From Candidatus Omnitrophota bacterium (GTDB lineage: Bacteria; Omnitrophota; Gorgyraeia; Zapsychrales; JANLHA01), in assembly GCA_963662715.1 (NCBI GenBank), contig OY759724.1, positions 3,293,845 to 3,357,844 on the forward strand: a stretch of DNA of 64,000 nucleotides, in the 5' to 3' direction. Below, piece by piece: positions 42,028 to 64,000 of this stretch. The notes beneath the pieces are model-generated. The model was not told where the DNA came from. It was given only the letters and a program-made list of their open reading frames with translations, and did not search any database. A program made the position numbers and the translations under genes. Positions within the stretch are counted from its first letter, which is position 1. Every line of letters begins with the position of its first letter.

Positions 42028-42097
42028 AACACAACTCCTTTTTCATCATTGTATTCAGAAAGCACGGATAGTCCGGCTATAACATGTTTCCTCTCGG

Positions 42098-42430: not shown

Positions 42431-42447
42431 AAGCCCAAGGAATCTCC

Positions 42448-45510: not shown

Positions 45511-48500
45511 CTATTCAGCACTTTCAAACCAAGTTTTAACCACGACTTCATCTGTCTCTATGGCTTCCTTCAGAGCATTCAATTTGGCATTAATCTCATC
45601 CAGTTTGGAGTATATCTTTTCATCTTCCCCGGCCTCTTCTTCCGTCAAATCCTCAACAGTCATGTCCGAATCCCCCAACCCTAAAGCCTCTGCCGCTTCA
45701 TTCACGAAATTCGTTAAAGTTGACAATATCTGGGAGGCCACGTTATTAGCTGAAACCTGCTCTTCCGAAATAGTCGTCATAGACGTTTTTAATTCCGTAA
45801 GAGTGGATTCCAATTGTTTAAGTTTGTTGTAAGTGTCCGGGCTCTGTCCGGCGGCACCCAGCTCATCCCGGATACTTTGGGCCTCTGTTAATGCTGCGCC
45901 CGCGCTGCTTTTGGCCGAATCCACATTCGTTTTGATCTCTTCCAGTTTACTCAACTCCCCAAAAACTGTTTCCGAAGACTCATCATCCTCATAGATTCCG
46001 ACCAGGACCTCTAAAGTATCCACATACTCAATAATTTCCTGCAAGTTACCAAAAACCGTATCTGCTGAAGACGTGTCTGTGGCTGTCCCAATAAGCGTCG
46101 TCAGGGATGTAATATTATCGTTAAGGGTGGTCACGTCCAAATCCTGTAAAGATTCAATAGCCGTAGTAAGCGCCGTAACGTCTAAACCGTTAAGAAGACC
46201 AAACAGTGTCCCGTCAGCCGCCGTATCAGCAGGATCCCCAATGTTATTATTCAGCGTCGTTACGGTTGTCAATATGGAGGCGACATTGGCGACCAAAGTC
46301 TGCGCATTGTCTGCTAAATAAGCGATGTCACTCCAATTAATATTTGCAGAAGTCATGGCAGATAAATCAGACCAGTTGATTCCCGCCGTAGATGTAATTC
46401 CCAAATCAACCCAGTTGACTCCTGCCCCCGTCATTTCCGTTAGATCCAGCCAGTTAACCGCAACATTTGTCATACTGCTCATATCTGTCCAATTGACGGC
46501 AGCAGACGACATGACAGCCAAATCCTGCCAATTAATTCCCGCATCGCTCATCACATCAATATCCAGCCAGTTAACTCCGGAGCCGGATAAAACTCCGATA
46601 CTGGACCAATTAACACCTGCCGATGCCATCACCCCGACATCCTGCCAGTTAACCCCTGCACGGCTTAGGCTGTTCATATCATTCCAATTAATACCGGCTC
46701 GAGTTAAATCATTAATCGATGTCCAATTAACACCACTTGTCGTGAGCGTCTGCATATCCTCCCAGTTGATCCCGGCCAAAGTCAAAGTACTTATATCATA
46801 CCAGTTGATGCCGGAAGACGAGAGAACTCCCAAATTCGTCCAGTTGATCCCTGAAGCGCTCATTTCATTAACATTATCCCAATTGATGCCGGCCTCGGAT
46901 AAAGAATCAATACTATCCCAGTTGATTCCCGTACTGCTCATAAGATCTATACTTGTCCAATTAATACCTCTACTTGTCATCACCTCAAGATCCTGCCAGT
47001 TAATTCCCACATCCGACATCACCTCGATATCCAGCCAGTTGATCCCCGCATCACTCAGCATATTGATACTGCTCCAATTGACTCCTGAATCACTTAACAC
47101 ATCAATGTCTGCCCAGTTGATCCCTGCATCACTTAACACATCAATATCTTTCCAGTTTATGCCGAATCCGCTCATTATACCTATATCTAACCAATTCACC
47201 CCGGCGTCGCTCATATCATTAATGCTTTCCCAGTTTATACCCGCATTAGCTAGTTCTCCGATATTTGTCCAATTAATACCTGTGGTAGACAGTTCGTTAA
47301 TATTATTCCAATTGATCCCGATATCCGACATTCTACCGATATCAGACCAATTAATACCTTGCGTTGACATTTCTGATATATTAGTCCAGTTAATATTTGA
47401 ACTTGACATTTCATCAATGCTGAGCCAATTAACTCCGGAATCTGATAATTCACTGATATTGGTCCAATTAATTTGCTGACTCGACAACACATCCAGATCT
47501 ATCCAGTTAATCCCCGCATCACTCATCTCGTTAATACTCAGCCAATTAATGCCTGTCTCACTCATAGAACTGATATCATTCCAATTAATACCACTACTGG
47601 TTAACTCCTCGATGTTATACCAGTTAACAGCAGCACTACTCATTACATCGATATCCAGCCAGTTGATCCCCGCTTCACTTAACACATCCAAATCCTTCCA
47701 ATTAATTCCCGCATCGCTTAACACGTCAATATCCAGCCAGTTGATCCCTGACGTACTCATAAGCCCTAGATGACTCCAGTTTATCCCCGTATCACTCATC
47801 ACATTGATATCCTGCCAGTTGATCCCTGCCTCACTCATGTCATTCACGCTTACCCAGTTGATCCCCATATCACTCAGAACATTGATATCCTGCCAGTTAA
47901 CTCCTGCATCACTTAATTCCGCAATACTCGTCCAGTTGATCCCCGTGTCCGAAAGCTCACTGATGTTCTCCCAGTTGATCCCCGTGTCCGACATCTCACT
48001 GATGTTCTCCCAGTTGATTCCCGTATCCGACAGCTCGCTGATGTTCTCCCAGTTGATCCCCGTGTCCGACATCTCGCTGATGTTCTCCCAGTTCACCCCG
48101 CTTGAGGACATCTCCCCGATGTTCACCCAATTGATCCCCGTCGTTGTCAATTCACTAATATTGCTCCAATTCACTCCGCTCGATGTCATCTCCCCAATAT
48201 TAACCCAGTTGATCCCCGTAGCACTCATATCCCCGATATTCACCCAATTGATCCCCATATCACTCATCACATTTATGTCCTGCCAGTTGATCCCCGTATC
48301 GCTCAGCACATCAATATCCAGCCAGTTGATCCCCGCATCGCTCAACACATCAATGTCCAGCCAATTGATCCCCGCGTCACTCATCACATTGATATCCTGC
48401 CAGTTGACTCCTGCATCACTTAATTCCGCAATACTCGTCCAGTTGATCCCCGTGTCCGACATCTCGCTGATATTCTCCCAGTTGATCCCCGTATCCGACA

Positions 48501-51500
48501 GCTCGCTGATACTCTGCCAGTTGATTCCCGTATCCGACAACTCGCTGATATTCTCCCAGTTCACCCCGCTTGAGGACATCTCCCCGATGTTCACCCAATT
48601 GATCCCCGTCGTTGTCAATTCACTAATATTGCTCCAATTCACTCCGCTCGATGTCATCTCCCCAATATTAACCCAGTTGATCCCCGTAGCACTCATGTCA
48701 CTGATGTTTGTCCAATTAATCCCTCTGTCACTCATCACATCAATATCCTGCCAATTGATTCCCGCTTCACTTAAATCATTCACACTCACCCAGTTGATCC
48801 CCGCGTCACTTAATACCCCTAAGTCCTGCCAATTAATCCCTGTATCACTTAATACATCCACATCCAGCCAGTTGATCCCCGCATCACTCATCACATCGAT
48901 ATCCAGCCAGTTGATCCCCGCATCGCTCATATCACTCACACTCACCCAATTGATCCCCGTATCACTTAACACATCCACATCCAGCCAGTTGATTCCCGCG
49001 TCACTCAAAATATCAAAATCTGCCCAGTTAATTCCTGCATCACTCAATACATCCACATCCAGCCAGTTGATCCCCGCGTCACTTAACACATCGATATCTG
49101 TCCAATTGACTCCCGCCTCTGTCATTTCTCCTATATTCAACCAGTTTATCCCTTGCGTTGTCATCTCTCCGATGTTTGCCCAATTCACTCCCGTTGTACT
49201 CATCTCGCTGATGTTCTCCCAGTTGATCCCCGTGTCCGATAACTCACTGATATTTTCCCAGTTCACCCCGCTTGAGGACATCTCCCCGATATTCGCCCAG
49301 TTGATCCCCGTACTGCTCATCTCACTGATATTGACCCAATTCACTCCCCGCGAGGACATCTCCCCGACATTTGCCCAATTGATCCCCGTCGTACTCATCT
49401 CGCTGATATTTTCCCAGTTAATTCCTGTATCTGACAACTCGCTGATGTTCTCCCAGTTAATCCCCGTATCTGACATCTCGCTGATGTTCTCCCAGTTGAT
49501 TCCCGTGTCCGATAACTCGCTGATATTTTCCCAATTGATTCCCGTTGTACTCATCTCACTGATATTTTCCCAATTTACTCCGCTTGATGACAACTCTCCA
49601 ATATTTACCCAATTAATCCCTGCGGCACTCATATCATAAACATTAGTCCAATTAATCCCCTTATCACTCATCACATCGATGTCCGACCAATTGATTCCTG
49701 ATTCACTCATATCTCCAATACTCGTCCAATTAATCCCTGCCGTTGTCAATTCTCCAATATTTACCCAGTTGATCCCCGTCGTACTCATCTCGCTGATATT
49801 TTCCCAGTTGATCCCCGTATCCGACAGCTCGCTGATGTTCTCCCAGTTGATCCCCGTATCCGACATCTCGCTGATGTTCTCCCAGTTGATCCCCGTATCC
49901 GACAGCTCGCTGATGTTCTCCCAGTTGATCCCCGTATCCGACATCTCGCTGATATTCTCCCAGTTGATCCCCGTATCCGACAATTCGCTGATATTCTCCC
50001 AGTTGATCCCCGTACTGCTCATCTCGCTGATATTTTCCCAGTTAATCCCTGTATCACTCATCACATCGATGTCCAGCCAGTTGATCCCCGCATCACTCAT
50101 ATCATTCACACTCACCCAGTTGATCCCCATATCACTCATCACATTGATATCCTGCCAGTTGATCCCTGCCTCACTTAACTCCGCAATACTCATCCAGTTG
50201 ATCCCCGTATCCGACAGTTCACTGATGTTCTCCCAGTTGATCCCCGTACTGCTCATCTCGCTGATGTTCTCCCAGTTGATCCCCGTATCCGACATTTCAC
50301 TGATGTTTTCCCAGTTAATCCCCGTGTCCGACATCTCACTGATATTCTCCCAGTTGATCCCCGTATCCGACAGCTCGCTGATGTTCTCCCAGTTGATCCC
50401 CGTACTGCTCATTTCGCTGATATTTTCCCAGTTCACTCCGCTTGACGATAACTCCCCGATATTCGTCCAATTAATTCCCGCAACACTCATATCATTCATA
50501 TTGGTCCAGTTAATCCCCGTATCACTCAATACATCCACGTCTAACCAATTAATCCCCGCATCACTTAAATCATTCACGCTCACCCAGTTGATCCCCGCAT
50601 CACTCATTACATCAATATCCAGCCAGTTGATCCCCGTCTCTGTCATAACATCCAAATCCTTCCAATTAATCCCCGCCGTTGTTAGCTCCCCTAAATCAAC
50701 CCAATTAACTCCTGAACTGCTTAATTCATCTATCCCGATCCAGTTAATTCCTGTATCACTCATCACATCGATATCCAGCCAGTTGATCCCCGCATCACTC
50801 ATATCATTCACACTCACCCAGTTGATCCCCATATCACTCATCACATTTATATCCTGCCAGTTAACTCCTGCGTCACTTAATTCCGCAATACTCATCCAGT
50901 TAATCCCCGTATCCGAAAGCTCACTGATGTTCTCCCAGTTGATCCCCGTGTCCGACATCTCACTGATGTTCTCCCAGTTGATCCCCGTATCCGACAGCTC
51001 ACTGATGTTCTCCCAGTTGATCCCCGTGTCCGACATCTCACTGATATTCTCCCAGTTAATCCCCGTATCCGACAGCTCGCTGATGTTCTCCCAGTTGATC
51101 CCCGTACTGCTCATCTCGCTGATATTTTCCCAGTTCACTCCGCTTGACGATAACTCCCCGATATTCGTCCAATTAATTCCCGCAGCACTCATATCATTCA
51201 TATTGGTCCAGTTAATCCCCGTATCACTCAACACATCCACGTCTAACCAATTAATCCCCGCATCACTTAAATCATTCACACTCACCCAGTTGATCCCCGC
51301 ATCACTCATCACATCAATATCCAGCCAGTTGATCCCCGTATCTGTCAGAACATCCAAATCCTTCCAATTAATCCCCGCCGTTGTTAGCTCCCCTAAATCA
51401 ACCCAATTAACTCCTGAACTGCTTAATTCATCTATCCCGATCCAGTTAATTCCTGTATCACTCATCACATCGATATCCAGCCAGTTGATCCCTGCTTCAC

Positions 51501-54500
51501 TCATATCATTCACACTCACCCAGTTGATCCCCATATCACTCATCACATTGATATCCTGCCAGTTAACTCCTGCGTCACTTAATTCCGCAATACTCATCCA
51601 GTTGATCCCCGTATCCGAAAGCTCACTGATGTTCTCCCAGTTGATCCCCGTGTCCGACATCTCACTGATGTTCTCCCAGTTGATTCCCGTATCCGACAGC
51701 TCGCTGATGTTCTCCCAGTTGATCCCCGTGTCCGACATCTCGCTGATGTTCTCCCAGTTCACCCCGCTTGAGGACATCTCCCCGATGTTCACCCAATTGA
51801 TCCCCGTCGTTGTCAATTCACTAATATTGCTCCAATTCACTCCGCTCGATGTCATCTCCCCAATATTAACCCAGTTGATCCCCGTAGCACTCATATCCCC
51901 GATATTCACCCAATTGATCCCCATATCACTCATCACATTTATGTCCTGCCAGTTGATCCCCGTATCGCTCAGCACATCAATATCCAGCCAGTTGATCCCC
52001 GCGTCACTCATCACATCTATGTCCAGCCAATTGATCCCCGCATCACTCATCACATCTATGTCCAGCCAATTGATCCCCGTTTCTGTTAACTCCCCAATAT
52101 TTAACCAATTAATTCCTCCCGTACTCATCTCACTGATATTCTCCCAGTTCACCCCGCTTGAGGACATCTCTCCGATATTCACCCAATTCACACCCGTTGT
52201 GCTCATCTCGCTGATATTCTCCCAGTTCACCCCGCTTGAGGACATCTCCCCGATGTTCACCCAATTGATTCCCGTCGTCGTTAATTCACTAATATTGCTC
52301 CAATTCACTCCGCTCGATGTCATCTCCCCAATATTAACCCAGTTGATCCCCGTAGCACTCATGTCACTGATGTTTGTCCAATTAATCCCTCTGTCACTCA
52401 TCACATCAATATCCTGCCAATTGATTCCCGCTTCACTTAAATCATTCACACTCACCCAGTTGATCCCCGCGTCACTTAATACCCCTAAGTCCTGCCAATT
52501 AATCCCTGTATCACTTAATACATCCACATCCAGCCAGTTGATCCCCGCATCACTCATCACATCGATATCCAGCCAGTTGATCCCCGCATCGCTCATATCA
52601 CTCACACTCACCCAATTGATCCCCGTATCACTTAACACATCCACATCCAGCCAGTTGATTCCCGCGTCACTCAAAATATCAAAATCTGCCCAGTTAATTC
52701 CTGCATCACTCAATACATCCACATCCAGCCAGTTGATCCCCGCGTCACTTAACACATCGATATCTGTCCAATTGACTCCCGCCTCTGTCATTTCTCCTAT
52801 ATTCAACCAGTTTATCCCTTGCGTTGTCATCTCTCCGATGTTTGCCCAATTCACTCCCGTTGTACTCATCTCGCTGATGTTCTCCCAGTTGATCCCCGTG
52901 TCCGATAACTCACTGATATTTTCCCAGTTCACCCCGCTTGAGGACATCTCCCCGATATTCGCCCAGTTGATCCCCGTACTGCTCATCTCACTGATATTGA
53001 CCCAATTCACTCCCCGCGAGGACATCTCCCCGACATTTGCCCAATTGATCCCCGTCGTACTCATCTCGCTGATATTTGTCCAATTAATCCCTCTGTCACT
53101 CATCACATCGATATCGTCCCAATTGATCCCCGCATCACTCAAATCATTCACACTCACCCAGTTAATCCCCGCGTCTGCAAGAACTCCGAGATCTCGCCAA
53201 TTAACCCCCGTATCACTCAATACATCAATGTCCAGCCAGTTAATCCCCGCATCACTCAATACATCGATGTCCAGCCAGTTGATCCCCGCATCACTTAAGT
53301 CATTCATACTTACCCAATTTATCCCGGTATCACTTAGCACATCGATATCATTCCAATTTATCCCTGCCTCACTCATATCTCCAATATTTGTCCAATTAAT
53401 TCCCGCTCTTGTAAAGACACCTAGATCACTCCAATTAATTCCTGAACGAGTTAATTCATTCATTTCAACCCAGTTGATCCCTGTATCACTCATCACATCG
53501 ATGTCCAGCCAGTTGATCCCCGCATCACTCATATCATTCACACTCACCCAGTTGATCCCCATATCACTCATCACATTGATATCCTGCCAGTTGATCCCTG
53601 CCTCACTTAACTCCGCAATACTCATCCAGTTGATCCCCGTATCCGACAGTTCACTGATGTTCTCCCAGTTGATCCCCGTACTGCTCATCTCGCTGATGTT
53701 CTCCCAGTTGATCCCCGTATCCGACATTTCACTGATGTTTTCCCAGTTAATCCCCGTGTCCGACATCTCACTGATATTCTCCCAGTTGATCCCCGTATCC
53801 GACAGCTCGCTGATGTTCTCCCAGTTGATCCCCGTACTGCTCATTTCGCTGATATTTTCCCAGTTCACTCCGCTTGACGATAACTCCCCGATATTCGTCC
53901 AATTAATTCCCGCAACACTCATATCATTCATATTGGTCCAGTTAATCCCCGTATCACTCAATACATCCACGTCTAACCAATTAATCCCCGCATCACTTAA
54001 ATCATTCACGCTCACCCAGTTGATCCCCGCATCACTCATTACATCAATATCCAGCCAGTTGATCCCCGTCTCTGTCATAACATCCAAATCCTTCCAATTA
54101 ATCCCCGCCGTTGTTAGCTCCCCTAAATCAACCCAATTAACTCCTGAACTGCTTAATTCATCTATCCCGATCCAGTTAATTCCTGTATCACTCATCACAT
54201 CGATATCCAGCCAGTTGATCCCCGCATCACTCATATCATTCACACTCACCCAGTTGATCCCCATATCACTCATCACATTTATATCCTGCCAGTTAACTCC
54301 TGCGTCACTTAATTCCGCAATACTCATCCAGTTAATCCCCGTATCCGAAAGCTCACTGATGTTCTCCCAGTTGATCCCCGTGTCCGACATCTCACTGATG
54401 TTCTCCCAGTTGATCCCCGTATCCGACAGCTCACTGATGTTCTCCCAGTTGATCCCCGTGTCCGACATCTCACTGATATTCTCCCAGTTAATCCCCGTAT

Positions 54501-57500: not shown

Positions 57501-60500
57501 CATCACTCAATACATCAATATCTTCCCAGTTGATCCCCGCCGTTGTTAGCTCCCCTAAATCAACCCAATTAACTCCTGCCCGGCTCAACTCGTCTATTCC
57601 CGACCAATTGATCCCTGCATCACTTAACACATCTATGTCCGCCCAGTTGATCCCCGCTTCACTCATATCATTCACACTCACCCAATTGATTCCCATATCA
57701 CTCATCACATTTATATCCTGCCAGTTGATCCCCGTATCACTTAACACATCGATATCCGTCCAGTTGATCCCTGCTTCGCTCAGAACATCCAAATCTAACC
57801 AGTTAACCCCTGCATCACTTAACACATCTATGTCCGCCCAGTTGATCCCCGCTTCACTCATCACATCTACGTCCAACCAGTTTATCCCCGCGTCACTTAA
57901 ATCATTCACACTCACCCAGTTGATCCCCGCATCACTCAATACATCTACGTCCTGCCAGTTGATCCCCGCTTCACTTAACACATCCAAATCTAACCAGTTA
58001 ACCCCCGCATCACTCAATACATCTACGTCCTGCCAGTTGATCCCCGCGTTCGTCATATCACTCATATTTACCCAGTTCATCCCCGCATCACTCATCACAT
58101 CCACATCCAGCCAATTGATCCCCGCGTCACTCATATCATTCACACTCACCCAGTTGATCCCCATATCACTCATCACATTTATATCCTGCCAGTTGATCCC
58201 CGTATCTGAGAGTACATCCAAGTCCACCCAGTTGATTCCCGCATCCGATAATACATCTAAATCCAACCAATTAACCCCTGCATCACTCAGCGCATCCACA
58301 TCCTGCCAGTTAATCCCCGCATCACTTAACACATCTATGTCCGCCCAGTTGATTCCCGCGTCACTCATATCATTCACACTCACCCAGTTGATCCCCGCCT
58401 CACTCAGTACATTTATATCCTCCCAATTAATCCCCGTATCACTTAACACATCGATATCCGCCCAGTTGATTCCCGCGTCACTTAACTCCCCGATATTCGC
58501 CCAGTTAATTCCTTCTGTACTCATCTCACTGATATTCGCCCAGTTCACCCCGCTTGACGACATCTCCCCAATATTCAACCAGTTCACTCCTGTCGTACTC
58601 ATCTCACTGACATTCGCCCAGTTCACCCCGCTTGACGACATCTCCCCGATATTCAACCAGTTGATCCCCGTATCCGACATCTCACTGATATTCGCCCAGT
58701 TCACCCCACTCGTGGATAACTCCCCGATATTCAACCAGTTCACTCCTGTCGTACTCATTTCACTGACATTCGTCCAGTTGATCCCCGCATCACTCAATAC
58801 ATCCACATCCTGCCAGTTGATCCCCGCGTCACTCATATCATTCACACTCACCCAGTTGATCCCCGCATCACTCAATACATTTATATCCTCCCAGTTAATC
58901 CCCGTATCACTTAACACATCTATATCCGCCCAGTTGATTCCCGCGTCACTTAATTCCCCGATACTCTCCCAGTTAATTCCTGTCGTACTCATTTCACTAA
59001 TATTAATCCAATTAATCCCATTTGATGACATCTCCCCGATATTCGCCCAATTGATACCCGTGTCCGACATCTCGCTGATATTCTCCCAGTTCACCCCACT
59101 CGTGGATAACTCCCCGATATTCAACCAGTTCACTCCTGTCGTACTCATCTCGCTGATATTCTCCCAATTTACCCCACTCGTGGATAACTCCCCGATATTC
59201 AACCAGTTCACTCCTGTCGTACTCATTTCACTGACATTCGTCCAGTTGATCCCCACATCACTCATCACATCTATGTCCTGCCAATTGATCCCCGCTTCAC
59301 TTAAATCATTCACACTCACCCAATTAATTCCTGCATCTGACAAAACGTCCACATCCAGCCAGTTTATCCCCGTATCACTTAACACATCCAGGTCCACCCA
59401 ATTAATTCCTGCATCTGACAGAACGTCCACATCCAGCCAGTTGATCCCCGCATTCGTCATATCACTCATACTCACCCAGTTCATCCCTGCATCACTCATC
59501 ACATCAATATCCGCCCAGTTGATCCCCGCATCACTTAAATCATTCACACTCACCCAATTGATTCCCGCGTCACTTAATACATCAATATCATCCCAGTTGA
59601 TCCCCGTATCACTTAACACATCGATATCCAGCCAGTTGATCCCTGCTTCACTCAATACTTCTACGTCCAGCCAGTTGATCCCCGCATTCGTCATATCACT
59701 CATACTCACCCAGTTCATCCCCGCATCACTCATCACATCGATGTCCTGCCAATTAACCCCCGTATCACTTAACACATCGATATCCGTCCAGTTAATTCCT
59801 GCTTCACTCAATGCATTAATATCCGTCCAGTTGATCCCCGTATCACTTAACACATCCAGGTCCACCCAGTTAATTCCTGCATCACTCAGTATATCTACGT
59901 CCAGCCAGTTGATCCCCGCATTCGTCATATCACTCATACTCACCCAGTTCATCCCTGCATCACTCATCACATCAATATCCGTCCAGTTGATCCCCGCGTC
60001 ACTTAGATCATTCACACTCACCCAATTAATTCCTGCATCACTTAACACATCGATGTCCTGCCAGTTTATCCCCGTATCACTCAGCACATCTATGTCCGCC
60101 CAGTTGATTCCCGCGTCACTCAATACTTCTACGTCCAGCCAGTTTATCCCCGCATTCGTCATATCACCCATGCTCACCCAGTTCATCCCCGCGTCACTCA
60201 TCACATCGATATCCTGCCAGTTTATCCCCGTATCACTTAACACATCGATATCCGCCCAGTTGATCCCCGCGTCACTTAACACATCCAGATCCAGCCAATT
60301 AATCCCCGTATCACTTAATACATCCAAATCCAACCAGTTAACCCCTGCATCACTCATCACATCCACATCCAGCCAGTTGATCCCCGCGTCACTTAACACA
60401 TCTATATCCGCCCAGTTGATCCCTGCTTCACTCATCACATCGATGTCCTGCCAGTTGATCCCTGCGTCACTTAATTCCCCAATACTTTCCCAATTGATCC

Positions 60501-63500
60501 CCGCCGTTGTCATCTCCCCGATATTTTCCCAATTAATCCCTGATCTACTTAACTCACTGATATTCTCCCAGTTGATCCCCGTATCCGACATTTCACTGAT
60601 GTTTTCCCAGTTAATCCCCGTGTCCGACATCTCGCTGATATTCTCCCAGTTCACTCCGCTTGATGACATCTCCCCGATATTCGCCCAGTTAATCCCCGTA
60701 CTGCTCATCTCACTGATATTCTCCCAGTTCACCCCGCTTGATGACATCTCCCCGATATTCAACCAGTTGATCCCCGTACTGCTCATCTCCCCAATATTTA
60801 ACCAGTTGATCCCTCGGTCACTTAACACATCTATATCCAGCCAGTTGATCCCTGCATTCGTCATATCACTCATACTCACCCAATTCATCCCTGCATCACT
60901 CATCACATCGATGTCCTCCCAGTTAATCCCCGCATCACTCAATACATCAATATCTTCCCAGTTGATCCCCGCCGTTGTTAGCTCCCCTAAATCAACCCAA
61001 TTAACTCCTGCCCGGCTCAACTCGTCTATTCCCGACCAATTGATCCCTGCATCACTTAACACATCTATGTCCGCCCAGTTGATCCCCGCTTCACTCATAT
61101 CATTCACACTCACCCAATTGATTCCCATATCACTCATCACATTTATATCCTGCCAGTTGATCCCCGTATCACTTAACACATCGATATCCGTCCAGTTGAT
61201 CCCTGCTTCGCTCAGAACATCCAAATCTAACCAGTTAACCCCTGCATCACTTAACACATCTATGTCCGCCCAGTTGATCCCCGCTTCACTCATCACATCT
61301 ACGTCCAACCAGTTTATCCCCGCGTCACTTAAATCATTCACACTCACCCAGTTGATCCCCGCATCACTCAATACATCTACGTCCTGCCAGTTGATCCCCG
61401 CTTCACTTAACACATCCAAATCTAACCAGTTAACCCCCGCATCACTCAATACATCTACGTCCTGCCAGTTGATCCCCGCGTTCGTCATATCACTCATATT
61501 TACCCAGTTCATCCCCGCATCACTCATCACATCCACATCCAGCCAATTGATCCCCGCGTCACTCATATCATTCACACTCACCCAGTTGATCCCCATATCA
61601 CTCATCACATTTATATCCTGCCAGTTGATCCCCGTATCTGAGAGTACATCCAAGTCCACCCAGTTGATTCCCGCATCCGATAATACATCTAAATCCAACC
61701 AATTAACCCCTGCATCACTCAGCGCATCCACATCCTGCCAGTTAATCCCCGCATCACTTAACACATCTATGTCCGCCCAGTTGATTCCCGCGTCACTCAT
61801 ATCATTCACACTCACCCAGTTGATCCCCGCCTCACTCAGTACATTTATATCCTCCCAATTAATCCCCGTATCACTTAACACATCGATATCCGCCCAGTTG
61901 ATTCCCGCGTCACTTAACTCCCCGATATTCGCCCAGTTAATTCCTTCTGTACTCATCTCACTGATATTCGCCCAGTTCACCCCGCTTGACGACATCTCCC
62001 CAATATTCAACCAGTTCACTCCTGTCGTACTCATCTCACTGACATTCGCCCAGTTCACCCCGCTTGACGACATCTCCCCGATATTCAACCAGTTGATCCC
62101 CGTATCCGACATCTCACTGATATTCGCCCAGTTCACCCCACTCGTGGATAACTCCCCGATATTCAACCAGTTCACTCCTGTCGTACTCATTTCACTGACA
62201 TTCGTCCAGTTGATCCCCGCATCACTCAATACATCCACATCCTGCCAGTTGATCCCCGCGTCACTCATATCATTCACACTCACCCAGTTGATCCCCGCAT
62301 CACTCAATACATTTATATCCTCCCAGTTAATCCCCGTATCACTTAACACATCTATATCCGCCCAGTTGATTCCCGCGTCACTTAATTCCCCGATACTCTC
62401 CCAGTTAATTCCTGTCGTACTCATTTCACTAATATTAATCCAATTAATCCCATTTGATGACATCTCCCCGATATTCGCCCAATTGATACCCGTGTCCGAC
62501 ATCTCGCTGATATTCTCCCAGTTCACCCCACTCGTGGATAACTCCCCGATATTCAACCAGTTCACTCCTGTCGTACTCATCTCGCTGATATTCTCCCAAT
62601 TTACCCCACTCGTGGATAACTCCCCGATATTCAACCAGTTCACTCCTGTCGTACTCATTTCACTGACATTCGTCCAGTTGATCCCCACATCACTCATCAC
62701 ATCTATGTCCTGCCAATTGATCCCCGCTTCACTTAAATCATTCACACTCACCCAATTAATTCCTGCATCTGACAAAACGTCCACATCCAGCCAGTTTATC
62801 CCCGTATCACTTAACACATCCAGGTCCACCCAATTAATTCCTGCATCTGACAGAACGTCCACATCCAGCCAGTTGATCCCCGCATTCGTCATATCACTCA
62901 TACTCACCCAGTTCATCCCTGCATCACTCATCACATCAATATCCGCCCAGTTGATCCCCGCATCACTTAAATCATTCACACTCACCCAATTGATTCCCGC
63001 GTCACTTAATACATCAATATCATCCCAGTTGATCCCCGTATCACTTAACACATCGATATCCAGCCAGTTGATCCCTGCTTCACTCAATACTTCTACGTCC
63101 AGCCAGTTGATCCCCGCATTCGTCATATCACTCATACTCACCCAGTTCATCCCCGCATCACTCATCACATCGATGTCCTGCCAATTAACCCCCGTATCAC
63201 TTAACACATCGATATCCGTCCAGTTAATTCCTGCTTCACTCAATGCATTAATATCCGTCCAGTTGATCCCCGTATCACTTAACACATCCAGGTCCACCCA
63301 GTTAATTCCTGCATCACTCAGTATATCTACGTCCAGCCAGTTGATCCCCGCATTCGTCATATCACTCATACTCACCCAGTTCATCCCTGCATCACTCATC
63401 ACATCAATATCCGTCCAGTTGATCCCCGCGTCACTTAGATCATTCACACTCACCCAATTAATTCCTGCATCACTTAACACATCGATGTCCTGCCAGTTTA

Positions 63501-64000
63501 TCCCCGTATCACTCAGCACATCTATGTCCGCCCAGTTGATTCCCGCGTCACTCAATACTTCTACGTCCAGCCAGTTTATCCCCGCATTCGTCATATCACC
63601 CATGCTCACCCAGTTCATCCCCGCGTCACTCATCACATCGATATCCTGCCAGTTTATCCCCGTATCACTTAACACATCGATATCCGCCCAGTTGATCCCC
63701 GCGTCACTTAACACATCCAGATCCAGCCAATTAATCCCCGTATCACTTAATACATCCAAATCCAACCAGTTAACCCCTGCATCACTCATCACATCCACAT
63801 CCAGCCAGTTGATCCCCGCGTCACTTAACACATCTATATCCGCCCAGTTGATCCCTGCTTCACTCATCACATCGATGTCCTGCCAGTTGATCCCTGCGTC
63901 ACTTAATTCCCCAATACTTTCCCAATTGATCCCCGCCGTTGTCATCTCCCCGATATTTTCCCAATTAATCCCTGATCTACTTAACTCACTGATATTCTCC
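45511..64000 (-). CDS. Giant repeat protein, 3' portion (at least 6160 aa here); the gene continues beyond the right window edge
   Basis: One minus-strand frame is open for 18.4 kb, whereas the antisense frames break into pieces of 2 kb or less. The body is about 450 tandem 13-aa units [LM]S[DES]xG[IV]NWx[DN][IV][DSG][EVD]. A unique ~270-aa C-terminal domain (coiled-coil-like, D/E/T-rich) leads in-frame to the stop at 45511. The repeat pattern continues unchanged to position 64000, so the true start lies outside the window. Confidence 0.85.
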   Translation of the reverse strand, partial: ENISELSRSGINWENIGEMTTAGINWESIGELSDAGINWQDIDVMSEAGINWADIDVLSDAGINWLDVDVMSDAGVNWLDLDVLSDTGINWLDLDVLSDAGINWADIDVLSDTGINWQDIDVMSDAGMNWVSMGDMTNAGINWLDVEVLSDAGINWADIDVLSDTGINWQDIDVLSDAGINWVSVNDLSDAGINWTDIDVMSDAGMNWVSMSDMTNAGINWLDVDILSDAGINWVDLDVLSDTGINWTDINALSEAGINWTDIDVLSDTGVNWQDIDVMSDAGMNWVSMSDMTNAGINWLDVEVLSEAGINWLDIDVLSDTGINWDDIDVLSDAGINWVSVNDLSDAGINWADIDVMSDAGMNWVSMSDMTNAGINWLDVDVLSDAGINWVDLDVLSDTGINWLDVDVLSDAGINWVSVNDLSEAGINWQDIDVMSDVGINWTNVSEMSTTGVNWLNIGELSTSGVNWENISEMSTTGVNWLNIGELSTSGVNWENISEMSDTGINWANIGEMSSNGINWINISEMSTTGINWESIGELSDAGINWADIDVLSDTGINWEDINVLSDAGINWVSVNDMSDAGINWQDVDVLSDAGINWTNVSEMSTTGVNWLNIGELSTSGVNWANISEMSDTGINWLNIGEMSSSGVNWANVSEMSTTGVNWLNIGEMSSSGVNWANISEMSTEGINWANIGELSDAGINWADIDVLSDTGINWEDINVLSEAGINWVSVNDMSDAGINWADIDVLSDAGINWQDVDALSDAGVNWLDLDVLSDAGINWVDLDVLSDTGINWQDINVMSDMGINWVSVNDMSDAGINWLDVDVMSDAGMNWVNMSDMTNAGINWQDVDVLSDAGVNWLDLDVLSEAGINWQDVDVLSDAGINWVSVNDLSDAGINWLDVDVMSEAGINWADIDVLSDAGVNWLDLDVLSEAGINWTDIDVLSDTGINWQDINVMSDMGINWVSVNDMSEAGINWADIDVLSDAGINWSGIDELSRAGVNWVDLGELTTAGINWEDIDVLSDAGINWEDIDVMSDAGMNWVSMSDMTNAGINWLDIDVLSDRGINWLNIGEMSSTGINWLNIGEMSSSGVNWENISEMSSTGINWANIGEMSSSGVNWENISEMSDTGINWENISEMSDTGINWENISELSRSGINWENIGEMTTAGINWESIGELSDAGINWQDIDVMSEAGINWADIDVLSDAGINWLDVDVMSDAGVNWLDLDVLSDTGINWLDLDVLSDAGINWADIDVLSDTGINWQDIDVMSDAGMNWVSMGDMTNAGINWLDVEVLSDAGINWADIDVLSDTGINWQDIDVLSDAGINWVSVNDLSDAGINWTDIDVMSDAGMNWVSMSDMTNAGINWLDVDILSDAGINWVDLDVLSDTGINWTDINALSEAGINWTDIDVLSDTGVNWQDIDVMSDAGMNWVSMSDMTNAGINWLDVEVLSEAGINWLDIDVLSDTGINWDDIDVLSDAGINWVSVNDLSDAGINWADIDVMSDAGMNWVSMSDMTNAGINWLDVDVLSDAGINWVDLDVLSDTGINWLDVDVLSDAGINWVSVNDLSEAGINWQDIDVMSDVGINWTNVSEMSTTGVNWLNIGELSTSGVNWENISEMSTTGVNWLNIGELSTSGVNWENISEMSDTGINWANIGEMSSNGINWINISEMSTTGINWESIGELSDAGINWADIDVLSDTGINWEDINVLSDAGINWVSVNDMSDAGINWQDVDVLSDAGINWTNVSEMSTTGVNWLNIGELSTSGVNWANISEMSDTGINWLNIGEMSSSGVNWANVSEMSTTGVNWLNIGEMSSSGVNWANISEMSTEGINWANIGELSDAGINWADIDVLSDTGINWEDINVLSEAGINWVSVNDMSDAGINWADIDVLSDAGINWQDVDALSDAGVNWLDLDVLSDAGINWVDLDVLSDTGINWQDINVMSDMGINWVSVNDMSDAGINWLDVDVMSDAGMNWVNMSDMTNAGINWQDVDVLSDAGVNWLDLDVLSEAGINWQDVDVLSDAGINWVSVNDLSDAGINWLDVDVMSEAGINWADIDVLSDAGVNWLDLDVLSEAGINWTDIDVLSDTGINWQDINVMSDMGINWVSVNDMSEAGINWADIDVLSDAGINWSGIDELSRAGVNWVDLGELTTAGINWEDIDVLSDAGINWEDIDVMSDAGMNWVSMSDMTNAGINWLDIDVLSDRGINWLNIGEMSSTGINWLNIGEMSSSGVNWENISEMSSTGINWANISELSDTGINWENISEMSDTGINWENISEMSDTGINWENISELSRSGINWQNIGQLSEAGINWMDIDVLSDTGINWQDINVMSDMGINWVSVNDMSDAGINWLDIDVMSDTGINWVEMNELTRSGINWSDLGVFTRAGINWTNIGDMSEAGINWNDIDVLSDTGINWVSMNDLSDAGINWLDIDVLSDAGINWLDIDVLSDTGVNWRDLGVLADAGINWVSVNDLSDAGINWDDIDVMSDRGINWTNISEMSTTGINWANVGEMSSRGVNWVNISEMSSTGINWANIGEMSSSGVNWENISELSDTGINWENISEMSTTGVNWANIGEMTTQGINWLNIGEMTEAGVNWTDIDVLSDAGINWLDVDVLSDAGINWADFDILSDAGINWLDVDVLSDTGINWVSVSDMSDAGINWLDIDVMSDAGINWLDVDVLSDTGINWQDLGVLSDAGINWVSVNDLSEAGINWQDIDVMSDRGINWTNISDMSATGINWVNIGEMTSSGVNWSNISELTTTGINWVNIGEMSSSGVNWENISEMSTTGVNWVNIGEMSSSGVNWENISEMSTGGINWLNIGELTETGINWLDIDVMSDAGINWLDIDVMSDAGINWLDIDVLSDTGINWQDINVMSDMGINWVNIGDMSATGINWVNIGEMTSSGVNWSNISELTTTGINWVNIGEMSSSGVNWENISEMSDTGINWENISELSDTGINWENISEMSDTGINWENISELSDTGINWMSIAELSDAGVNWQDINVMSDMGINWVSVNDMSEAGINWLDIDVMSDTGINWIGIDELSSSGVNWVDLGELTTAGINWKDLDVLTDTGINWLDIDVMSDAGINWVSVNDLSDAGINWLDVDVLSDTGINWTNMNDMSAAGINWTNIGELSSSGVNWENISEMSSTGINWENISELSDTGINWENISEMSDTGINWENISELSDTGINWENISEMSDTGINWENISELSDTGINWMSIAELSDAGVNWQDINVMSDMGINWVSVNDMSDAGINWLDIDVMSDTGINWIGIDELSSSGVNWVDLGELTTAGINWKDLDVMTETGINWLDIDVMSDAGINWVSVNDLSDAGINWLDVDVLSDTGINWTNMNDMSVAGINWTNIGELSSSGVNWENISEMSSTGINWENISELSDTGINWENISEMSDTGINWENISEMSDTGINWENISEMSSTGINWENISELSDTGINWMSIAELSEAGINWQDINVMSDMGINWVSVNDMSDAGINWLDIDVMSDTGINWVEMNELTRSGINWSDLGVFTRAGINWTNIGDMSEAGINWNDIDVLSDTGINWVSMNDLSDAGINWLDIDVLSDAGINWLDIDVLSDTGVNWRDLGVLADAGINWVSVNDLSDAGINWDDIDVMSDRGINWTNISEMSTTGINWANVGEMSSRGVNWVNISEMSSTGINWANIGEMSSSGVNWENISELSDTGINWENISEMSTTGVNWANIGEMTTQGINWLNIGEMTEAGVNWTDIDVLSDAGINWLDVDVLSDAGINWADFDILSDAGINWLDVDVLSDTGINWVSVSDMSDAGINWLDIDVMSDAGINWLDVDVLSDTGINWQDLGVLSDAGINWVSVNDLSEAGINWQDIDVMSDRGINWTNISDMSATGINWVNIGEMTSSGVNWSNISELTTTGINWVNIGEMSSSGVNWENISEMSTTGVNWVNIGEMSSSGVNWENISEMSTGGINWLNIGELTETGINWLDIDVMSDAGINWLDIDVMSDAGINWLDIDVLSDTGINWQDINVMSDMGINWVNIGDMSATGINWVNIGEMTSSGVNWSNISELTTTGINWVNIGEMSSSGVNWENISEMSDTGINWENISELSDTGINWENISEMSDTGINWENISELSDTGINWMSIAELSDAGVNWQDINVMSDMGINWVSVNDMSEAGINWLDIDVMSDTGINWIGIDELSSSGVNWVDLGELTTAGINWKDLDVLTDTGINWLDIDVMSDAGINWVSVNDLSDAGINWLDVDVLSDTGINWTNMNDMSAAGINWTNIGELSSSGVNWENISEMSSTGINWENISELSDTGINWENISEMSDTGINWENISELSDTGINWENISEMSDTGINWENISELSDTGINWMSIAELSDAGVNWQDINVMSDMGINWVSVNDMSDAGINWLDIDVMSDTGINWIGIDELSSSGVNWVDLGELTTAGINWKDLDVMTETGINWLDIDVMSDAGINWVSVNDLSDAGINWLDVDVLSDTGINWTNMNDMSVAGINWTNIGELSSSGVNWENISEMSSTGINWENISELSDTGINWENISEMSDTGINWENISEMSDTGINWENISEMSSTGINWENISELSDTGINWMSIAELSEAGINWQDINVMSDMGINWVSVNDMSDAGINWLDIDVMSDTGINWENISEMSSTGINWENISELSDTGINWENISEMSDTGINWENISELSDTGINWENISEMSDTGINWENISELSDTGINWENISEMSTTGINWVNIGELTTAGINWTSIGDMSESGINWSDIDVMSDKGINWTNVYDMSAAGINWVNIGELSSSGVNWENISEMSTTGINWENISELSDTGINWENISEMSDTGINWENISELSDTGINWENISEMSTTGINWANVGEMSSRGVNWVNISEMSSTGINWANIGEMSSSGVNWENISELSDTGINWENISEMSTTGVNWANIGEMTTQGINWLNIGEMTEAGVNWTDIDVLSDAGINWLDVDVLSDAGINWADFDILSDAGINWLDVDVLSDTGINWVSVSDMSDAGINWLDIDVMSDAGINWLDVDVLSDTGINWQDLGVLSDAGINWVSVNDLSEAGINWQDIDVMSDRGINWTNISDMSATGINWVNIGEMTSSGVNWSNISELTTTGINWVNIGEMSSSGVNWENISELSDTGINWQSISELSDTGINWENISEMSDTGINWTSIAELSDAGVNWQDINVMSDAGINWLDIDVLSDAGINWLDIDVLSDTGINWQDINVMSDMGINWVNIGDMSATGINWVNIGEMTSSGVNWSNISELTTTGINWVNIGEMSSSGVNWENISEMSDTGINWENISELSDTGINWENISEMSDTGINWENISELSDTGINWTSIAELSDAGVNWQDINVLSDMGINWVSVNDMSEAGINWQDINVMSDTGINWSHLGLMSTSGINWLDIDVLSDAGINWKDLDVLSEAGINWLDIDVMSSAAVNWYNIEELTSSGINWNDISSMSETGINWLSINEMSDAGINWIDLDVLSSQQINWTNISELSDSGVNWLSIDEMSSSNINWTNISEMSTQGINWSDIGRMSDIGINWNNINELSTTGINWTNIGELANAGINWESINDMSDAGVNWLDIGIMSGFGINWKDIDVLSDAGINWADIDVLSDSGVNWSSINMLSDAGINWLDIEVMSDVGINWQDLEVMTSRGINWTSIDLMSSTGINWDSIDSLSEAGINWDNVNEMSASGINWTNLGVLSSSGINWYDISTLTLAGINWEDMQTLTTSGVNWTSINDLTRAGINWNDMNSLSRAGVNWQDVGVMASAGVNWSSIGVLSGSGVNWLDIDVMSDAGINWQDLAVMSSAAVNWTDMSSMTNVAVNWLDLTEMTGAGVNWVDLGITSTAGINWSDLSAMTSANINWSDIAYLADNAQTLVANVASILTTVTTLNNNIGDPADTAADGTLFGLLNGLDVTALTTAIESLQDLDVTTLNDNITSLTTLIGTATDTSSADTVFGNLQEIIEYVDTLEVLVGIYEDDESSETVFGELSKLEEIKTNVDSAKSSAGAALTEAQSIRDELGAAGQSPDTYNKLKQLESTLTELKTSMTTISEEQVSANNVASQILSTLTNFVNEAAEALGLGDSDMTVEDLTEEEAGEDEKIYSKLDEINAKLNALKEAIETDEVVVKTWFESAE
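46330..64000 (-). repeat. 39-bp coding tandem repeat array (about 450 units) with superimposed ~3.43 kb near-identical higher-order repeats
   Basis: Exact 39-nt periodicity is visible, for example CTCACTGATGTTCTCCCAGTTGATCCCCGTGTCCGACAT. Positions 57101-60532 and 60533-63964 match at an offset of 3432 bp (88 x 39), and a third copy starts near 63913. A second higher-order family occurs around 46.5-57 kb (for example ~50.0 kb and ~53.5 kb). Confidence 0.9.

Follow-up and report, generated by a model that had tools for sequence, protein, structure and literature searches.

The question raised by this locus is what is encoded by a giant, highly repetitive open reading frame (ORF), and whether it is a gene at all. 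In the window, the 64,000-nucleotide stretch of Omnitrophota DNA analysed here, the ORF is composed as follows.

45511-64000, minus strand: giant ORF, truncated at its 5' end by the window edge; 6,162 codons plus stop, the sole frame without internal stops
46318-64000, minus strand: array of 453 units of 13 aa (39 nt), consensus [LM][ST]x[ATS]G[IV]NWx[DNS][IVL]xx
45514-46317, minus strand: non-repeat C-terminal module of 268 aa, predicted helical, with TxFG(x)L motifs and ending VVKTWFESAE

The stop codon occupies 45511-45513 and the frame is unbroken up to base 64000, as expected of the giant incomplete ORF reported in a first-pass annotation made from the letters alone. The real start is not the first ATG inside the window (63945), because the in-frame sequence 5' of it, ENISELSRSGINWENIGE, has no stop. 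The four out-of-phase frames over the same span carry 226-737 stops each. Invariant repeat residues are encoded by mixed synonymous codons (Asn by AAC in 312 cases and AAT in 141; Gly by four codons), and nucleotide diversity across repeat units is greatest at codon position 3 (0.51), followed by positions 1 (0.36) and 2 (0.26). The ORF is confirmed as a genuine coding sequence, the 3' 18.5 kb of an Omnitrophota gene that is incomplete at its 5' end. Searches for that end found neither a 60-mer from the window end among the metagenome contigs searched nor a 100% match to the window among the genome contigs scanned, and look-ups of the exact atpA and gamma proteins gave no match either. The 6,162-aa product contains no TM-like segment (maximum Kyte-Doolittle 19-residue mean, 1.22).

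The array comprises 453 Asn-Trp (NW) motifs. Each of the 452 intervals between one motif and the next is exactly 13 aa, and no indel interrupts the series; the earlier estimate of about 450 units of 13 residues was therefore accurate, and its consensus agrees with the computed unit profile, [M50/L49][S87/T13][D57..][A44/T34/S12]G99[I78/V20]N100 W100 x [D44/N38/S15][I66/V19/L9][D/S/G/N][E41/V39/D15]. TRF reports periods of 39, 78 and 117 nt spanning 47638-63936, and the units resolve into 151 distinct peptides and 225 distinct 39-mers. Even unit offsets are more identical than odd ones in 48 of 57 arrays, a two-unit periodicity by which the structural period is probably two units (26 aa). Two other regularities were considered and rejected: an alternation of Met and Leu at unit position 1 throughout the array (231 of 452 neighbouring units share the residue) and a six-unit signature common to lineages (the six-unit consensus varies by locus).

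The first-pass annotation recognised no known repeat class in this unit, an impression borne out by the searches, which gave no real family match for the GINW repeat in Pfam, NCBIfam or PDB sequences. Leucine-rich (20-29 residues), pentapeptide (5), hexapeptide (6) and RTX (9) repeats differ in period from the 13 residues found here, and none gave a profile match at E<=1. Lysostaphin_N (PF25533), the N-terminal repeats of lysostaphin, scored 47.5 and 39.6 bits in two 540-650 aa segments and 18.8 bits in the relative P0012, all below the 60-bit gathering cutoff on the whole-protein score that defines membership; these sub-threshold matches arise because the two repeats have the same 13-residue period, and they share no motif. 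For Ntox33 (PF15533), membership of which takes at least one domain-level match to the 65-residue toxin profile, whole-protein sums (35.8 and 56 bits) lay above the cutoff, yet no single stretch passed and only profile positions 5-37 were covered. We dismiss this match as additive, since the whole-protein score sums partial matches and a 65-aa fragment of five GINW units had no Pfam match. EF-hand- or dockerin-like Ca2+ loops were also rejected: inspection by eye gave no fit of the motif to DxDxDG, and dockerin, EF-hand, TSP3 and RTX profiles had no match in the window protein, nor did the first three in its relatives. A literature search on the name 'GINW' returned surnames only.

Relatives are numerous. 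A scan of species-representative genomes identified 161, almost all from Omnitrophota MAGs, and the best 80 stretches of these 161, when retrieved, represented 76 distinct loci. Homologue searches gave 29 and 72 homologues; every named one is from Omnitrophota and the best-matching locus is 75% identical, which settles the lineage that had been suspected at first reading. The 13-aa motif is kept in 8,331 units, drawn from 78 loci in other genomes, and array size across the family is put at about 30 to more than 1,200 units. In six loci (L019, L021, L030, L042, L048 and L051), the ORF fills the entire upstream flank (9.7-10 kb; >3,800-4,100 aa, 276-300 units), and in every case with 10 kb of upstream flank the array took up all of it (>4,100 aa). 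The gene call in L002 is 16,204 aa long, and L075 and L034 together span ~29.7 kb on one 1.2 Mb contig. Many relatives' contigs break within the array, and short-read MAGs systematically cut this gene short. As judged from sequence, the protein, which we refer to as the GINW fibre, is an undescribed, phylum-wide family in which very long arrays are common, and not the singular oddity it had first seemed.

The C-terminal module extends this relationship beyond the repeat. A 307-aa query, comprising the module and the last three repeat units, retrieved 160 relatives among 1.84 billion representatives, with E down to 1e-191, and the module matched no family in Pfam, NCBIfam or PDB-sequence searches. 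AF2 models it with long helices at pLDDT 70-90. The family C-terminal signature [VI][VI]K[ST][WY][FY]E is present in the window protein, which aligns here with P0001, P0002, P0004 and P0010; the window protein thus has the array, the C-terminal module and the downstream locus position by which the GINW fibre family is defined. The module also ends proteins that lack GINW repeats. One of these, P0121, has the same N- and C-terminal modules and the same locus slot, with Kre9_KNH Ig-like domains replacing the GINW units, and the stalk is therefore interchangeable. Complete relatives carry an N-terminal signal peptide followed by an Ig-like domain, in some cases with LamG; for the window gene, whose 5' end lies beyond base 64000, a signal peptide and head are presumed by analogy with relatives, none of which is more than 75% identical to it.

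Turning to the neighbouring genes, three features follow the giant gene on the same strand.

44096-45478, minus strand: 460-aa partner gene (hyp460), 32 nt downstream of the giant gene
38371-43992, minus strand: F-type ATPase-like cluster encoding alpha, epsilon, two c-like subunits, a b/delta fusion, gamma and beta
26701-38337, minus strand: T2SS/T4aP-like genes

In the hyp460 product, a signal peptide and a C-terminal TM helix accompany two repeated domains and coiled-coil-like segments; it gave no Pfam, NCBIfam or PDB match. The ATPase-like cluster contains no subunit a; by NCBIfam, its alpha and beta subunits score above the ordinary atpA/atpD cutoffs and do not reach those of the gliding families. 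The end of the beta gene is followed, 33 nt further on, by GspE/PilB, a protein with MshEN and PilZ domains. It is accompanied by GspF, an MA-clan peptidase, GspG, minor pseudopilins, GspK, PilM/N, a PilO-like protein and a TPR protein, with gene gaps of -137 to 34 nt across this region. The spacing of the locus is operon-like, and no minus-strand terminator was found after the giant gene. This order is conserved: in all 59 loci holding the C-terminus, hyp460, the F1-like ATPase and then GspE/GspF lie downstream. Upstream, 10 of the 12 loci holding the N-terminus have hyp192, a secretin and a TPR gene on the same strand, often with one or two FGE-sulfatase-like genes; of the other two, L068 lacks only the hyp192 match (near the locus edge) and L075 has too short a flank to show these genes. 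With secretin and TPR genes preceding it in these relatives, the giant gene is not the lead cistron that the first-pass annotation had made it.

A 'symbiotic' type-2/3 F-type ATPase adjoining type-4a pilus (T4aP) genes has been described in Omnitrophota, and such F1-like ATPase/T4aP loci were proposed to serve attachment (Seymour et al. 2023, PMC10066038). By gene content this locus is present in the window, where alpha/beta adjoin GspE/PilB, GspF and pseudopilins, and its F-type alpha and beta genes lie within 10 kb of T4aP genes, the arrangement by which those authors recognised it. Seymour et al. treat giant ORFs and the ATPase/T4aP locus as separate traits, whereas here the fibre and hyp460 are constant members of the locus. 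Two hallmarks of the phylum that had been discussed apart, and with little mechanism, are now linked, with a Pfam-invisible giant-repeat family as a constant locus component across the phylum.

Giant ORFs of Omnitrophota have been reported as Archaeovorins and Dockerin-type proteins (West-Roberts et al. 2023, 10.1101/2023.11.21.568195; Seymour et al. 2023, PMC10066038; a 2026 preprint, 10.64898/2026.06.07.730766), and share with the GINW protein their phylum, extreme length, T2SS/T4P-like neighbours and a proposed role in host or prey contact. As judged from its in-window part, the GINW protein is not an Archaeovorin, a type that West-Roberts et al. (2023) characterise by many transmembrane regions together with HEAT repeats and a SecA DEAD-like domain: it has no TM-like window in 6,162 aa and, in three segments scanned, no SecA-DEAD or HEAT Pfam match. 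Nor is it a Dockerin-type giant, defined by dockerin/EF-hand and TSP3 repeats, for which the profile searches above were negative in the window protein and in relatives alike. Unlike both, it is built almost wholly of one 13-aa unit that no Pfam model recognises, and its gene has a fixed slot between secretin and F1-like ATPase. Giant proteins were sorted by Pfam content in 10.1101/2023.11.21.568195 and 10.64898/2026.06.07.730766, and the word 'repeat' has no occurrence in PMC10066038; the GINW fibre is not described in any of these three works.

What, then, might this protein do? Our preferred reading, to which we give somewhat better than even weight, is that the ORF encodes the C-terminal part, at least 6,162 residues, of a secreted cell-surface fibre with a length-variable stalk, handled by a secretin/pilus-like machine; we infer its secretion, surface location, stalk function and coupling to the machine from the features above. 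By comparison with relatives, the fibre would begin with a Sec signal peptide and a Gly/Ser-rich linker, followed by an Ig-like domain and then another beta domain, with LamG and further uncharacterised N-terminal extensions preceding the array in some lineages; the variable GINW array would follow, and then the conserved helical C-terminal module ending ...VVKTWFE. The array could act as a rigid solenoid stalk or spacer, the length of which would set the distance between head and cell. The fibre may be exported, anchored or operated by the secretin/pseudopilus machine and could contact host or prey cells. Because the gene is always embedded between secretin-TPR and hyp460/F1-like ATPase/GspE/F/G-PilMNO genes, handling by this machine is most likely, conserved adjacency being in itself no proof of it. 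A T2SS substrate is defined by a Sec/Tat signal peptide and by dependence on the co-encoded T2SS; here the signal peptides are those of relatives and the co-location is observed. We know of no T2SS substrate of this size.

Giant fibrillar and RTX adhesins provide one parallel through their extender regions, which in ice-binding or biofilm adhesins, for example, are tandem Ig-like repeats. As in those extenders, a head would be held off the cell by a stalk of variable copy number, and the sister protein in the same slot has tandem Ig-like domains. Unlike them, the GINW units are 13 aa rather than ~100 aa domains, and the family has an N-terminal signal peptide and no T1SS signal.

A second parallel, to which Seymour et al. 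(2023) also refer, is the gliding machinery of Mycoplasma mobile. In that machinery an F1-like ATPase motor is combined with giant surface 'leg' proteins, in a system without an outer membrane or secretin. Here too, an F1-like ATPase cluster is tied to a very large surface protein and a membrane protein; unlike in M. mobile, the alpha/beta subunits fall short of the gliding families and the fibre has no homology to Gli proteins. As a speculation that we rate as unlikely, the GINW fibre, hyp460, the subunit-a-less F1-like ATPase, the secretin and the pseudopilus platform could form one unrecognised Omnitrophota envelope machine, a leg-and-motor analogue on a diderm T2SS/T4P chassis, in which the rotary ATPase and/or pilus motor would extend, retract or move a fibre of at least 100-300 nm to capture or crawl on host cells, its stalk being a new solenoid class of single 13-residue helix-turn units. 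In any case, the GINW fibre can be named as a specific candidate for the part of the apparatus that works outside the cell; the reading predicts fibres at the secretin, fibre length that scales with unit number, and heads that bind host surfaces.

A solenoid-type stalk, in line with the solenoid-forming repeat proposed at first reading, is plausible; the single unit as its structural period gives way to a probable 26-residue period, and the fold is disputed between alpha and beta. AF2 predictions of the array disagree: a helical model has a 9-residue helix and a 4-residue loop in each unit (pLDDT ~45), and a beta-helix model has one strand per unit, alternating long and short (pLDDT 77.2, pTM 0.77). 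The latter came from a run on 16 core units, within the range of 10-20 for which structure prediction had been suggested, and was the confident one of five models, the remaining four having pLDDT 36-47; its alignment of 144 self-derived rows consisted of paralogous segments of the same protein.

In the reading that we put at about an even chance, each unit is a short amphipathic alpha-helix (from ~W8 to A4 of the next unit) with a two-residue Gly-Ile turn, helix pairs form a 26-residue alpha-solenoid, and the beta-helix is an AF2 artefact. Besides the helical model, this fold is supported by covariation across 7,981 distinct three-unit windows, in which separations 3 and 4 dominate and separation 2 is weak, with positions 10-13 (MIp 0.20) and 12-3' (MIp 0.19) as top pairs; the analysis is not formal DCA, and unit subtypes spread by duplication can inflate the signal. 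In 31 of 35 loci, whichever mean was higher, that for separation 3 or that for separation 4, lay above the mean for separation 2. Acidic residues swap between positions 10 and 13, K-E and R-E pairs occur at i/i+4, and in our assignment, which follows established helix-capping rules, I6 (N'), N7 (N-cap), D10 (N3) and I11 (N4) would form a hydrophobic staple and capping box, and L1 (C3), G5 (C') and I6 (C'') a Schellman motif. Covariation at i+3/i+4 and these capping motifs favour one short alpha-helix per unit. Against this fold stand the low pLDDT of the helical model and the fact that the sole confident model is beta; moreover, we know of no alpha-solenoid with helices this short. The stalk function would be the same with an alpha fold.

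The alternative, which we regard as possible but doubtful, is a right-handed parallel beta-helix in which two units (26 aa) make up one coil, a fold resembling the stalks of pertactin, FHA or EtpA-type adhesins and phage tailspikes. It draws on the best AF2 model and on the excess of even-offset identity, and the top Foldseek matches of that model are mostly beta-solenoids, none of them significant; Foldseek against the PDB gave nothing significant for either fold model, membership of the beta-helices being judged by coils of ~22-27 residues forming parallel sheets and by superposition on known members. That one model in five is confident argues against it, as do the paralogous make-up of the MSA and the missing i+2 covariation expected of strands, and AF2 is documented to over-predict beta-solenoids for near-perfect repeats (PMC11795689), so that the GINW beta model may itself be an artefact. 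Beta-helix adhesins and tailspikes of the pectate-lyase fold (pertactin, FHA/EtpA, UpaB, phage tailspikes) have no sequence similarity to the array, whose period is exactly 13/26 and whose likely export is by Sec and the secretin/pseudopilus locus, not type V secretion. The in-window stalk would be ~110 nm long if each coil of a beta-helix took two units, and around double that length as a two-helix alpha-solenoid. This very regular natural repeat lends itself to testing the beta-solenoid bias of AlphaFold2 against sequence covariation.

We consider it quite improbable that the protein forms no discrete fibre and is instead a polyanionic, cation-binding coat or matrix (a 'velum'-type layer) or a means of Ca2+/metal sequestration. 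Such a role would suit the window array, which is rich in Asp, Asn and Ser, with 0.5% K+R and a net charge of -979 over 5,894 aa, and the giant protein of V. archaeovorus has been proposed as a coat (PMC10066038). However, acidity is not a family trait and was rejected as the functional core: net charge per unit varies from -2.9 to -0.1 among lineages, and in L002, L048, L051 and L052 the units are near neutral and Lys-rich, yet retain the G-[IV]-N-W...D-[IL] core. The negative EF-hand, dockerin, TSP3 and RTX searches also tell against a coat, and the exact spacing and conserved hydrophobic positions point to a folded scaffold.

Returning to the fibre, the length of its array in this genome is affected by two tandem segmental duplications.

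57248-64000, minus strand: tandem segmental duplication 1, with ~60680-64000 100% identical to ~57248-60568
50045-57032, minus strand: tandem segmental duplication 2, with ~53477-57032 100% identical to ~50045-53600

Both have the same offset of 3,432 nt (88 units) and are identical over about 3.3 and 3.6 kb, respectively. Because the copies are 100% identical, the true unit count depends on the assembly; these 3.4 kb duplications may have been introduced by assembly or polishing, which leaves the array length uncertain. In the proposed model, array length would change fast through unequal recombination among units and higher-order blocks.

As to coding status, the idea that the region is a non-coding satellite, an assembly artefact or the source of an antisense 'SQLIPVS...' product is largely refuted and extremely improbable: the identical duplications, an antisense frame open over 4,787 codons and a source contig not found in the public collections searched speak for it, but the sense frame is stop-free for all 18.5 kb and continues into a conserved non-repeat domain for which 160 relatives were retrieved, invariant residues vary synonymously, orientation and position in an operon-like cluster are the same in 59 loci, and 44 independent related arrays each lie inside one unbroken sense ORF. 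The nearly open antisense frame, which the first-pass annotation had missed, contains six stops in the window and is broken by 3-98 stops in 41 of the 44 related arrays; with the sense ORFs intact, it is therefore a by-product of the repeat and was rejected as a real gene.

The minus strand of the window carries a giant open reading frame, the fibre gene, and downstream of it genes for a membrane protein (hyp460), an F-type ATPase-like set and a T2SS/T4aP-like set:

45511–64000, minus: fibre gene; stop codon at 45511–45513, frame still open at base 64000 (6,162 codons in the window)
45514–46317, minus: C-terminal module of the fibre protein, its last 268 residues, non-repetitive
44096–45478, minus: hyp460, 460 aa, with a signal peptide and a C-terminal TM helix, directly downstream of the fibre gene
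38371–43992, minus: F-type ATPase-like set (alpha, epsilon, two c-like subunits of 73 and 75 aa, a b/delta fusion, gamma, beta)
downstream, minus: T2SS/T4aP-like set (GspE/PilB with MshEN and PilZ domains, GspF, MA-clan peptidase, GspG, minor pseudopilins, GspK, PilM/N, PilO-like protein, TPR protein)
27617–29851, minus: the PilO-like protein, with a ~470-aa Gly/Ser/Glu/Asp/Gln low-complexity region

The giant ORF contains 453 Asn-Trp dipeptides. Each of the 452 intervals between neighbours is exactly 13 residues long, and the array is free of indels across the window. The ORF finder places the start at an ATG at 63945, but the in-frame repeat runs on upstream of it without a stop, so this ATG is internal. 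These counts bear out the first-pass annotation, which described a 5′-incomplete ORF of ~450 13-residue 'GINW' units; its consensus agrees with the profile computed from the 453 units, [M/L][S/T](D>S,T,E)(A/T/S)G[I/V]NWx[D/N/S][I/V/L](D/S/G/N)(E/V/D), in which Gly is present at 99% and Asn and Trp at 100%. Tandem Repeats Finder reports periods of 39, 78 and 117 nt, the 78-nt period scoring best. The array is strongly acidic (net charge −979 over 5,894 aa; K+R 0.5%).

The ORF is a real giant gene. Of the six frames, only the sense frame is free of internal stops (226–737 occur in each of the four that are out of phase), invariant residues are written in several synonymous codons (Asn as AAC 312 and AAT 141 times, Gly in four codons), and nucleotide diversity among 225 distinct 39-mers is highest at codon position 3 (0.51), followed by positions 1 (0.36) and 2 (0.26). 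Each of 44 related arrays from other genomes likewise lies within one uninterrupted sense ORF. Satellite DNA with stops in every frame, the alternative raised in the first-pass annotation, is rejected on the stop-free sense frame, the synonymous codon use and the intact ORFs of these relatives. One antisense frame is also nearly open (6 stops; longest run 4,787 codons, 49640–64000, plus strand) and would read as a 13-aa repeat 'SQLIPVSDSSLMF'; the corresponding frame in related arrays is stop-poor, yet broken by 3–98 stops in 41 of 44. It is therefore not a gene but a by-product of the codon content of the repeat, which automatic gene callers could mis-annotate.

The proposal that the repeat belongs to no known class is upheld. 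Pfam searches returned solely sub-threshold or additive matches: Lysostaphin_N, likewise of 13-residue period, scored 47.5 and 39.6 bits against a 60-bit cutoff, and Ntox33 was rejected since its whole-protein cutoff was reached just by adding partial matches, no domain passing singly. Five GINW units alone gave no Pfam match either. The significant match to a known Pfam repeat that the first-pass annotation named as refuting its view was thus absent. The C-terminal module matched nothing in NCBIfam, and a PDB sequence search with the repeat profile and the C-terminal module gave nothing significant. Looser, irregularly spaced 'GINW'/'INW' motifs occur in other secreted proteins (P0016, P0022–P0029), some of which have fibre-like 'GNVGIGT' repeats or a common C-terminal '...GGVIYAE' domain, so the motif may predate and extend beyond the Omnitrophota family.

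The exact number of units is provisional. Self-comparison reveals a 3,432-nt (88-unit) period, and two pairs of segments are 100% identical (~60680–64000 with 57248–60568; ~53477–57032 with 50045–53600), whereas adjacent blocks between the two pairs are just 62–94% identical. From sequence, the array looks like four higher-order copies forming two identical pairs. These could stem from very recent unequal crossing-over or gene conversion, or from homogenisation during long-read assembly or polishing.

The fibre family is phylum-wide, with conserved termini. A protein search with the last 699 residues recovered 29 homologues, all named ones from Candidatus Omnitrophota. The complete 868-aa homologue P0002 opens with a signal peptide and a Gly/Ser-rich stretch; next come an Ig-like domain and a second beta domain, then a few 'KAKTDTINWxDI' transitional units leading into ~30 regular units of 13 aa, and finally a C-terminal module whose last residues are VVKAWYESE. 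A scan of one genome for each species turned up 161 stretches that encode relatives, the best 80 of which, once retrieved, represented 76 distinct loci. Nearly all derive from Omnitrophota MAGs. The title 'uncultured Planctomycetales' is borne by several binning-pipeline records, and a small number of short contigs were binned with other taxa. The closest loci (L003, L004) share 74–75% identity over the 528-aa query, indicating that the genome of the window is absent from the species-representative set. Across the phylum (8,331 units, 78 loci), the profile is L/M1, S/T2, A/T/S4, G5 (90%), I/V6, N7, W8, D10 (78%), I/L11. The net charge of a unit lies between −2.9 and about −0.1, and some lineages are rich in Lys; acidity is thus a trait of the lineage of the window and not of the family.

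In every one of the six loci with a near-10-kb upstream flank (L019, L021, L030, L042, L048, L051), the ORF occupies the entire flank (>3,800–4,100 aa, 276–300 units), and many contigs start or stop inside the array. Giant arrays are therefore the norm, cut off in short-read assemblies; this truncation accounts for the finding of just 160 relatives, mostly fragments (longest 2,809 aa), when 1.84 billion protein representatives were searched with the C-terminal module and last three units. On a JGI metagenome contig the gene call for the fibre is 16,204 aa long, and the 582-aa N-terminal fragment before it was probably separated by a frameshift. On the 1.2 Mb contig JBFWOS010000001, two loci jointly cover ~29.7 kb, starting with a signal peptide and finishing with the conserved C-terminus.

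Turning to genomic context, the fibre gene occupies an invariant slot in a secretin/pseudopilus/F1-like ATPase cluster. In the window, intergenic gaps from the giant gene through the TPR gene are at most 103 nt or the genes overlap, and no minus-strand terminator-like site was found after the giant gene. The order hyp460–alpha–epsilon–c–b/delta–gamma–beta–GspE–GspF, traced by tblastn with the window proteins, is matched in all 59 loci with a fibre C-terminus, even at 25–35% hyp460 identity; L079 has a GGDEF protein in place of hyp460. Same-strand genes for hyp192, a secretin and a TPR protein precede the fibre gene in 10 of 12 loci with an N-terminus (in L068 only hyp192 is unmatched, close to the locus edge; the flank of L075 is too short for secretin and TPR). 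The giant gene is therefore mid-cluster and not, as first annotated, the lead cistron. In 8 of the 12, namely L001 (6796–9991), L063, L066, L070, L073, L075, L076 and L079, the TPR and fibre genes are separated by one or two FGE-sulfatase-like (SUMF1-type) genes; modification or assembly of the fibre is a possible role. The hyp460 protein contains two internally repeated domains and coiled-coil-like regions, and had no match in family and PDB searches. Of the ATPase subunits, alpha and beta pass the NCBIfam atpA/atpD cutoffs, while gamma, delta, epsilon and c fall far under theirs. The subunit order is identical in the relatives examined; subunit a was found neither in the window cluster nor, between c and b/delta, in those relatives. 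The low-complexity region of the PilO-like protein causes a local 61% GC and strong skew.

The C-terminal module (TxFG(K)L-type helices, ...PV[IV]KTWFE end) also occurs in large proteins devoid of GINW units (P0121, P0124, P0132, P0184). P0121 (1,827 aa) resembles the fibre in the layout of its N-terminal region, its stalk contains a Kre9_KNH-type Ig-like domain, and its gene sits in the fibre slot, with secretin, TPR and two FGE-like genes before it and GGDEF protein, ATPase genes and GspE after it. Some GINW proteins have extra N-terminal modules (LamG, a Rha78A-like Ig domain, long unannotated extensions). Such a pattern, in which the ends are conserved, the head varies and the repetitive middle can be exchanged, is expected of a surface-fibre spacer or stalk.

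Structure prediction of 10–20 units, suggested in the first-pass annotation, gave a helix in one run, but the two AlphaFold2 runs conflict. In run 1 (last 20 units plus C-terminal module; 22-row alignment), each unit forms a 9-residue helix (W8 to the next D3) and a 4-residue loop at pLDDT ~45, and the C-terminal module is confidently helical (pLDDT 70–90); Foldseek with this model found nothing significant. Evidence independent of AlphaFold2 leans towards helix. Over 7,981 distinct three-unit windows, the strongest APC-corrected couplings join positions 10–13 (separation 3) and 12–3′ (separation 4), with more pairs at these separations and separation 2 weak. In loci analysed singly, separations 3, 4 and 7 recur among the three strongest pairs, and in 31 of 35 the mean at separation 3 or at separation 4, whichever is higher, is above that at separation 2. 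Pair tables show an acidic residue at position 10 or 13, seldom both, and K-E and R-E pairs at i/i+4. We take I6-N7-W8-x-D10-I11 to fit an N-terminal hydrophobic staple and capping box, and L1-...-A4-G5-I6 a Schellman C-cap, following established helix-capping rules. AlphaFold2 is documented to over-predict beta-solenoids for near-perfect repeats (2025, PMC11795689). We give the alpha fold about an even chance; the beta-helix of the second run (16 core units; pLDDT 77.2, one of five models confident) we consider less likely.

Alpha and beta models alike imply a two-unit structural period, which fits the 48 of 57 arrays (each at least 40 units, L002–L077) whose units are more alike at even offsets than at odd ones. 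Units are most alike when six apart in 29 of the 57, and when two apart in 11, a pattern spread over deeply diverged lineages that may reflect structure or amplification history; the six-unit consensus varies between lineages. The models and offsets thus support the solenoid first proposed, as a regular stalk of 26-residue structural period. The in-window array would measure an estimated ~110 nm as a beta-helix (226 coils × 0.48 nm) and about twice that as a two-helix alpha-solenoid.

Giant surface proteins and an ATPase/T4aP locus are already known in Omnitrophota. Seymour et al. (2023, PMC10066038) reported a 'symbiotic' F-type ATPase beside T4aP genes, in loci proposed to act in attachment, and treated giant ORFs as a different trait, widespread and without a known function; West-Roberts et al. 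(2023) observed that T2SS-like genes adjoin giant genes and defined Archaeovorin and Dockerin-type proteins; and a 2026 preprint classified long proteins by Pfam content. The GINW family and its fixed slot are absent from all three. The novel points are the repeat family, found to be ubiquitous and systematically truncated in MAGs, the fixed position joining two known traits and the evidence for a modular stalk. Signal peptides in relatives (the window ends before the 5′ end) suggest that the fibre protein would be exported by Sec, and it may then be threaded through, or anchored at, the secretin machine, with the conserved C-terminal module and co-conserved hyp460 as candidate anchoring partners. 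It could project Ig/LamG-type heads from a ~0.2 µm cell to touch hosts or prey, its reach adjusted through fast array expansion and contraction. We regard it as improbable that fibre and cluster together make up one new envelope machine whose solenoid belongs to a new class.

N-glycosylation of the fibre is possible, judging from 163 N-x-S/T sequons, mostly within 'WENISE' units; none has D/E at position −2. An STT3-family oligosaccharyltransferase gene lies near the cluster (22380–24938, plus). Other genes in the window are:

16449–18044, plus: DDE transposase, between two CitMHS transporter gene fragments
18144–18911 and 15102–15575, minus: the CitMHS fragments
10507–14599, minus: sulfotransferase, transaldolase and split (two-gene) transketolase, ordinary metabolic genes flanking the cluster
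1641–9956, minus: teneurin-like protein, 2,771 aa (TTR, FN-plug, NHL, YD-shell, RHS repeats)
1167–1628, minus: unannotated 153-aa ORF after the teneurin-like gene

The CitMHS gene looks to have been split by an IS insertion. The teneurin-like protein is a candidate polymorphic toxin, and the 153-aa ORF could encode an immunity protein.
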